In this document: piece by piece, positions 2,839 to 3,344 of the stretch
Numbering within the stretch: the stretch's first letter is position 1
Layout of the letters: every line of letters begins with the position of its first letter
Source of the DNA: a virus
Lineage: Duplodnaviria; Heunggongvirae; Uroviricota; Caudoviricetes
IMG/VR virus record: IMGVR_UViG_2534682255_000031
DNA: 6,095 bases
Reading direction: 5' to 3' (one strand)
Notes under the pieces: model-generated
Databases searched by the model: none
What the model was told of the DNA's origin: nothing
What the model saw: only the letters and a program-made list of their open reading frames with translations
Made by a program: the position numbers and the translations under genes

Positions 2839-3344
2839 TCATAATTCTGTGCTGGTGGCAGGAATTAATTTCTGCCAGATAGCGGAAACATATTTTGCCT
2901 GATGACGGGCATCAGCCAGGGCGTTGTGCCGTTCGCCATCGAAAGGCATGTCCATTTTGGGGTCGAATCCGATGGAACGCCCAAGCGTAACGATCGTGCG
3001 TACATCGTGGTCATTCCAGTACGCCCACGGGCAGATTTGTCCTGCTCGCTCGTAAGCTCCACGTAAAATTACGTTGTCGAAGGTGGCCCCGTTACCCCAG
3101 ACTTTTAAATATTTCGTATTGTCTGCGTGCCGGTTAATGAAATGGTTTAGTTCTGAGAGAGCATCGCTGATCGACAAAGTATCATCAATACTTCCAGCGA
3201 TACCAGCGCGACTTTAAATGCGGTAAGTACGTTTTTAACCACATCGATTTTGAATACTATTTCATCACATACAAACGATTTATCGTCTACTACCGTTTCA
3301 ATTCCGGTAATCGTGTTTTGTAGCCATTTGGTTAATTCAGCCAT
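2839..3344 (-). pseudogene. DEDDh-type 3'-5' exonuclease, apparently disrupted: N-terminal 65-aa ORF (3147-3344, ATG start) and C-terminal exonuclease domain (2839-3213) are in different frames
   Basis: The C-terminal frame carries Exo II-like KVWGNGATFDNVIL and Exo III-like HNALADARHQAKY (H-x4-D). Its frame is closed upstream by TAA at 3214-3216 and begins only at TTG 3177. No canonical Exo I (D-x-E) motif was found in either piece. Confidence 0.5.

Follow-up and report, generated by a model that had tools for sequence, protein, structure and literature searches.

Does the minus strand between positions 2839 and 3344 carry one exonuclease gene split by a frameshift, two separate genes, or the fused remains of two genes? 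The question concerns a short part of the window, by which we mean the whole stretch of 6,095 nucleotides analysed here. Two reading frames overlap at 3147-3213, one of them coding for an exonuclease-like domain and the other being a 65-aa ORF with an ATG start. A sequence-only reading had described both: an exonuclease frame with Exo II and Exo III, a TAA upstream of it and no ATG, and the overlapping ORF. Direct reading, translation and Pfam agree with it on the first, and the ORF list together with direct reading on the second.

Direct reading and translation show the exonuclease frame running open from 3213 to its stop codon at 2839-2841, and the ORF list gives within it a TTG-initiated ORF of 112 aa on the minus strand (2839-3177). 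The product matches the Rv2179c-like 3'-5' exoribonuclease domain (Pfam: PF16473) with an E-value of 3.4e-37 and 128 bits, for a cut-off of 27 bits. Only positions 79-177 of the 177 in the domain are covered, which is its C-terminal 60%, and positions 1-78, the N-terminal ~40%, are missing from the remnant. This similarity is far beyond chance and identifies the frame at 2839-3213 as the C-terminal part of an Rv2179c-like or DexA-like DEDDh 3'-5' exonuclease. The frame has no ATG start, its first in-frame methionine being far downstream in KMDMPF. Its sole start is the TTG at 3177, which lies inside codon 79 of the intact gene and is fortuitous as a start codon. In the identical sequence of E. 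coli TR01, PGAP labels the piece corresponding to window 2839-3198 '3'-5' exonuclease; incomplete; missing N-terminus'. A promoter scan of 2700-3700 found no promoter-like site, and a terminator scan of the same range found two weak sites, a number not above the shuffled expectation.

The Exo II and Exo III motifs of the remnant are identical to those of the intact protein (Table 1); we take positions 2911-2928 to be Exo III from established knowledge of DEDDh exonucleases. The search for Exo I, in which residues 1-74 of the intact protein were compared with all six frames of the window by tblastn, gave a best E-value of 1.2, which is chance level. DEDD exonucleases use a two-metal mechanism, in which two of the four acidic ligands of the metals come from the D-x-E of Exo I. 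Because these two ligands and ~40% of the domain are gone, the remnant would be unable to bind both catalytic metal ions and should hence give no active nuclease. The sequence-only reading had likewise found no Exo I in either piece and considered the enzyme probably inactive; the motif is indeed absent from every frame of the window, and the conclusion of probable inactivity is supported.

An intact form of the gene is known. WP_001061339.1 is a 3'-5' exonuclease of 190 aa found in prophages and phages, which matches PF16473 over its full length (1-177 of 177, 253 bits) as well as phrog_255 'exonuclease', and whose N-terminus, MNNLMIDLETMG, bears the Exo I D-x-E as D7-L-E9. From I75 to L190 the remnant is 100% identical to this protein. 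Intact genes of this type occupy the same position as the remnant, where the early-left operon ends, directly upstream of a PrtN/AlpA-like gene. Unlike them, the remnant is without codons 1-73, the start codon and the upstream neighbours. All matches in the phage collection that have at least 97% identity to exonuclease genes start at 3191. The viable phage mEp460 has a comparable early region with an intact 573-bp exonuclease gene (mEp460_026), preceded by a complete gene.

The 65-aa ORF has another parentage. Its residues 1-51 are identical (51/51) to the 138-aa protein WP_000829414.1, from which it diverges afterwards; the other intact form of this upstream protein has 155 aa (WP_016241028.1). 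The intact protein matches phrog_660 (function unknown) with an E-value of 3.9e-38, and the 138-aa and 155-aa forms have no Pfam family and only PHROG families of unknown function. The 65-aa ORF itself gave no match in Pfam or PHROGs, and it ends with 14 residues, VLMILCRSAMLSQN, that come from reading exonuclease DNA in the wrong frame. The TAA at 3214-3216 in turn lies outside the exonuclease sequence, because the exonuclease-derived DNA ends at the junction at 3191.

With the parents of both sides identified, the frameshift favoured by the sequence-only reading can be weighed. In that explanation a small frameshift or a sequencing error near 3147-3213 broke up one exonuclease gene, and the 65-aa ORF is the displaced N-terminus; the two overlapping ORFs do lie in different frames, and together they reach ~165 aa, about the size of such enzymes. 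The sum is a coincidence, the intact gene encoding 190 aa. The reading had expected an alignment to locate the frameshift, but BLASTP aligned the 65-aa ORF with the intact exonuclease nowhere at E<=100, and its N-terminus is that of the 138-aa protein. The upstream ORF thus shows no relationship to the exonuclease N-terminus, a finding that the reading had itself named as telling against a frameshift. Moreover, the true N-terminus is in no frame of the window, the DNA homology breaks abruptly at 3191 with 1.36-1.46 kb missing, and the junction is identical, as an 80-mer, in 202 complete genomes, which also excludes an error of sequencing or assembly there. A frameshifted single-gene pseudogene was consequently rejected, since the pieces are not consecutive parts of one protein and the upstream piece comes from another one; we give this explanation virtually no credence. 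The comparison upholds instead the alternative that the reading had mentioned, fusion of an unrelated N-terminal piece: 51 residues are from the phrog_660 protein, apparently joined to the exonuclease by a ~1.4-kb deletion.

A second explanation is that the locus holds two functional genes independent of each other: one is conserved and encodes 65 aa, and the other encodes an exonuclease-domain protein that is short by nature and starts from the TTG at 3177. PGAP does give the 65-aa ORF an accession (hypothetical protein WP_000829415.1), and phrog_8783 (114 positions, unknown function) is confined to the C-terminal part of the exonuclease, matching window 2842-3177, which corresponds to exonuclease residues 77-185. 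However, the 65-aa ORF ends in the out-of-frame exonuclease DNA, and outside the genomes that carry the junction the same N-terminus continues into proteins of 138-155 aa. The near-identical relatives all extend the exonuclease to 190 aa with the full Pfam domain, and a protein that has no Exo I and begins only after profile position 78 should, from the mechanism of DEDD enzymes, not bind two metals. Two genuine genes are therefore exceedingly improbable. WP_000829415.1 stands for no real protein family; it is an artefact, a chimera left by the deletion, and phrog_8783 probably collects truncated copies like this remnant that were annotated as proteins.

Directly upstream of the 65-aa ORF, about 100 bp (3346-3449) have relatives of 86-97% identity in thousands of E. 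coli prophages. These relatives precede varied genes (DUF7167, ead/Ea22-like, DUF4014 and hypothetical ones), and since the segment is found before different genes it acts as a mobile mosaic 'linker' module. It includes a perfect hairpin, ACCGCCC-GAAA-GGGCGGT, at 3354-3371 without a T-run; no Rfam family reached its gathering score in the window, this hairpin included.

The join itself reads ...CTGGAAG/TATTGATGAT... on the coding strand, where the slash marks the breakpoint. The parental flanks share a single G only, so the breakpoint is ambiguous by 1 nt, and no longer microhomology or repeats were found at the deletion endpoints. The upstream gene supplies 154 nt (51 codons and 1 nt), and the exonuclease sequence picks up within codon 74, at nt 221/222; the two are thus joined out of frame.

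Table 1. Features of the locus in window coordinates, with carriers of the intact exonuclease gene
Feature	Position	Strand	Details
Exonuclease 3' remnant	2839..3191	minus	part of codon 74, codons 75-190, stop; pseudogene
Exo III, kept	2911..2928	minus	H162-N-A-L-A-D167 (H-x4-D), DEDDh type
Exo II aspartate, kept	3076..3078	minus	D112 of intact protein; motif GATFD
Chimeric 65-aa ATG ORF	3147..3344	minus	51 native codons + 14 codons of out-of-frame exonuclease DNA; TAA 3147-3149
Deletion junction	3191..3191		one base shared by both flanks: C on plus, G on coding strand
5' remnant of unrelated early-region phage gene	3192..3344	minus	51 codons; parent intact at 138 or 155 aa
TAA closing exonuclease frame upstream	3214..3216	minus	foreign upstream-gene DNA in wrong frame
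Some carriers of intact exonuclease form			mEp460 gp26; ST64B sb29/sb30 region; dusA-site prophages of E. coli O111:H- 110512 and ECE170

In genomes without the O157 arrangement, homology on the exonuclease side ends at window position 3191. ECE170 has a prophage at the same chromosomal place with an intact 573-bp exonuclease gene (WP_001061339.1). Window 1407-3191 aligns there at 99.8%, and window 3191-3418 aligns 1,359 bp further on, inside a gene for a 155-aa hypothetical protein. A closer relative than ECE170 is the prophage of O111:H- 110512 at the same dusA site, where window 3191-5384 is 99.95% identical, with one mismatch, and window 1-3191 resumes 1,463 bp further along. The gene order in O111:H- 110512 is methyltransferase, 138-aa phrog_660 gene, small gene(s), DUF551 gene, 190-aa exonuclease and PrtN/AlpA-like gene. 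The 1,463 bp that are absent from the window hold codons 52-138 of the phrog_660 gene, a 63-aa gene (phrog_1222), two DUF551 fragments and codons 1-73 of the exonuclease. A truncated or chimeric pseudogene made by deletion is marked by just these features: flanks that run collinear to an intact relative, extra DNA between them in that relative and an abrupt junction in the window.

The same break could instead be a mosaic boundary, left by recombination between two different prophages and not by an internal deletion. In favour of this are the strong mosaicism of lambdoid early regions, the unlike DNA that ECE170 (1,359 bp) and O111:H- 110512 (1,463 bp) have between the breakpoints, and the ~100 bp upstream of the 65-aa ORF, a module common to many gene contexts. 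Phage mosaicism typically joins at gene boundaries; the break here, unlike such junctions, is inside two coding sequences with 1 nt shared. Furthermore, both flanks are near-identical to one and the same prophage at the same site, that of O111:H- 110512 (99.95% on one side, and an exonuclease remnant 100% identical on the other), which makes an internal deletion the most economical explanation. We consider recombination between prophages highly unlikely, and the result is a dead gene under recombination or deletion alike.

The distribution of the junction was examined with an 80-mer (window 3152-3231) as the query against 5,426 complete E. coli genomes. It is present at full length and 100% identity in 202 of them, and 430 other genomes match only bases 1-41 or 41-80, with the break at query base 41, which is position 3191. 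These full-length matches, together with the others breaking exactly at 3191, show one event that was inherited clonally. Among the 26 junction-spanning matches listed, the named serotypes are all O157:H7; the same holds for the 13 junction-spanning matches listed for the 80-mer search, in which the others are unlabelled. No record in the phage collection spans the junction contiguously. The junction is a clean clonal marker.

The locus is thus almost certainly a dead remnant, produced by one deletion in a degraded lambdoid dusA prophage of E. coli O157:H7, in its early-left region. The ancestral arrangement would survive in O111:H- 110512 and, with another intervening mosaic, in ECE170. An illegitimate deletion with 1 nt of microhomology would have begun at codon 52 of the phrog_660 gene and reached codon 74 of the exonuclease, taking out ~1.4 kb (1.36-1.46 kb, the exact size hinging on the mosaic content of the ancestor). 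Lost with it would be the exonuclease start with 73 codons, its upstream neighbours and the 3' two-thirds of the phrog_660 gene. Translation from the surviving ATG (3344) would give 51 native and 14 nonsense residues before the stop at 3147-3149, the nonsense end following from the out-of-frame join. We infer the direction, a deletion here rather than an insertion elsewhere, from the long form, because its Pfam domain is complete, a viable phage carries it and a near-identical prophage has it in collinear order. Most likely the remnant is also without function. Against this reading, it has no secondary decay that would prove lost constraint, its protein sequence still being 100% identical to the intact version, as is expected of a recent event confined to one clone. 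The C-terminal-only versions gathered in phrog_8783 also mean that some phage genomes have comparable short ORFs annotated. There is a very faint chance that the 65-aa chimeric peptide or the TTG-initiated 112-aa fragment is expressed and the remnant not entirely inert. If so, the product might, for instance, join oligomeric DexA-like exonucleases of co-resident or superinfecting phages as a partner with a dominant-negative effect, and such a role would explain the fixation of the junction among the 202 genomes that carry it.

The surroundings are those of a short lambdoid prophage remnant. Window 2500-3700 is 100% identical to E. coli O157:H7 chromosomes such as TR01, in which the order before the region is dgkA-lexA-dinF-yjbJ-zur-DUF2713, followed by a 5' dusA fragment. 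In the window this fragment of the gene for tRNA-dihydrouridine synthase A is at 1318-1422 on the plus strand (a partial pseudogene in the identical TR01 region) and identifies the prophage as integrated at dusA; at this end no integrase gene was found.

Other genes of the remnant are also damaged. In a SAM-dependent methyltransferase gene (minus strand, 3491-3997), a single nonsense codon at 3680-3682 (TGG to TAG; C to T on the plus strand at 3681) separates ORF 3680-3997 from ORF 3491-3670, and this substitution is the sole difference from O111:H- 110512 over 3191-5384 (2,194 bp). The methyltransferase gene of TR01 has an internal stop as well. A second deletion junction is found at ~5384/5385, where the collinearity with O111:H- 110512 ends inside a DUF2303/YfdQ gene, and ORF 4966-5352 matches only positions 148-269 of the 269 in the DUF2303/YfdQ Pfam family. 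In TR01 both ends of this gene are missing, and what is left runs into the C-terminal part of a tail-tip gene; the corresponding C-terminal part of the tail-tip (J-like) gene lies at 5439-6095 in the window, on the strand opposite to DUF2303/YfdQ. Since the second deletion joins YfdQ to the tail-tip gene, the genes for immunity, replication, lysis and most of morphogenesis are gone.

Window 1-5716 as a whole is 97.3% identical to TR01, with many differences in the first ~460 bases, in the DUF2713 gene (1-957), and no alignment to TR01 was found beyond 5716, in the tail-tip gene (5717-6095). Because of these mismatches, the strain of the window differs from TR01 and the DUF2713 and tail-tip genes are variable. 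A 116-aa ORF at 3961-4311 (minus strand) of the window is intact, as is its counterpart in O111:H- 110512; the same region of TR01 is annotated with an 'Eae protein' and a partial pseudogene, so that the decay of the remnant differs between strains.

The locus represents ordinary prophage decay, and the pseudogene, already annotated by PGAP, is thus known. What the present analysis corrects is the mechanism, a deletion of ~1.4 kb that fused two unrelated genes and not a frameshift; nothing here suggests new biology.

The intact parent has relatives of known structure. The closest structures found by sequence search are those of T4 DexA (8kel/8ken), which are cited in a paper on this phage T4 enzyme (Kang et al., NAR 2025, PMC12153337). 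Parent residues 3-140 match the 8kel chain with an E-value of 4e-11; the D-x-E-T motif is conserved and the 'FD' of Exo II aligns to 'FD' of that chain, but at 46 bits in phmmer the two are distantly related. According to that paper, many Escherichia have homologues of DexA, and one of these in E. coli, EcD, protects against T4 by a defence called 'HREX', an anti-T4 activity that degrades 5hmC DNA (PMC12153337). Parent residues S80 and D83 align to DexA S87 and D90, and EcD has an alanine (A78) at the D90 position; with D83 at this position, the parent does not obviously appear to be of the EcD type. The remnant differs from T4 DexA and from an HREX-type defence in that its Exo I catalytic residues are deleted, and since the window copy is a truncated pseudogene no DexA/HREX-like activity is expected of it. 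As the parent belongs to the DexA-like exonucleases lately linked to anti-T4 defence, its loss might have a small phenotypic meaning.

The decay of the element can likewise be compared with that of known O157 prophages. Most prophages of O157 Sakai bear frameshifts, deletions or IS insertions, and the lambdoid remnants among them include several that are 'severely degraded' (Asadulghani et al. 2009, PMC2669165). Sakai Sp18 was ruled out as the element seen here, Sp18 being Mu-like, and for the 'severely degraded' Sp17 no text was found that links it to dusA or zur. The pattern reported for the O157 prophages (PMC2669165) is the same as the one in the window, where two deletions and one nonsense codon occur within 6 kb.
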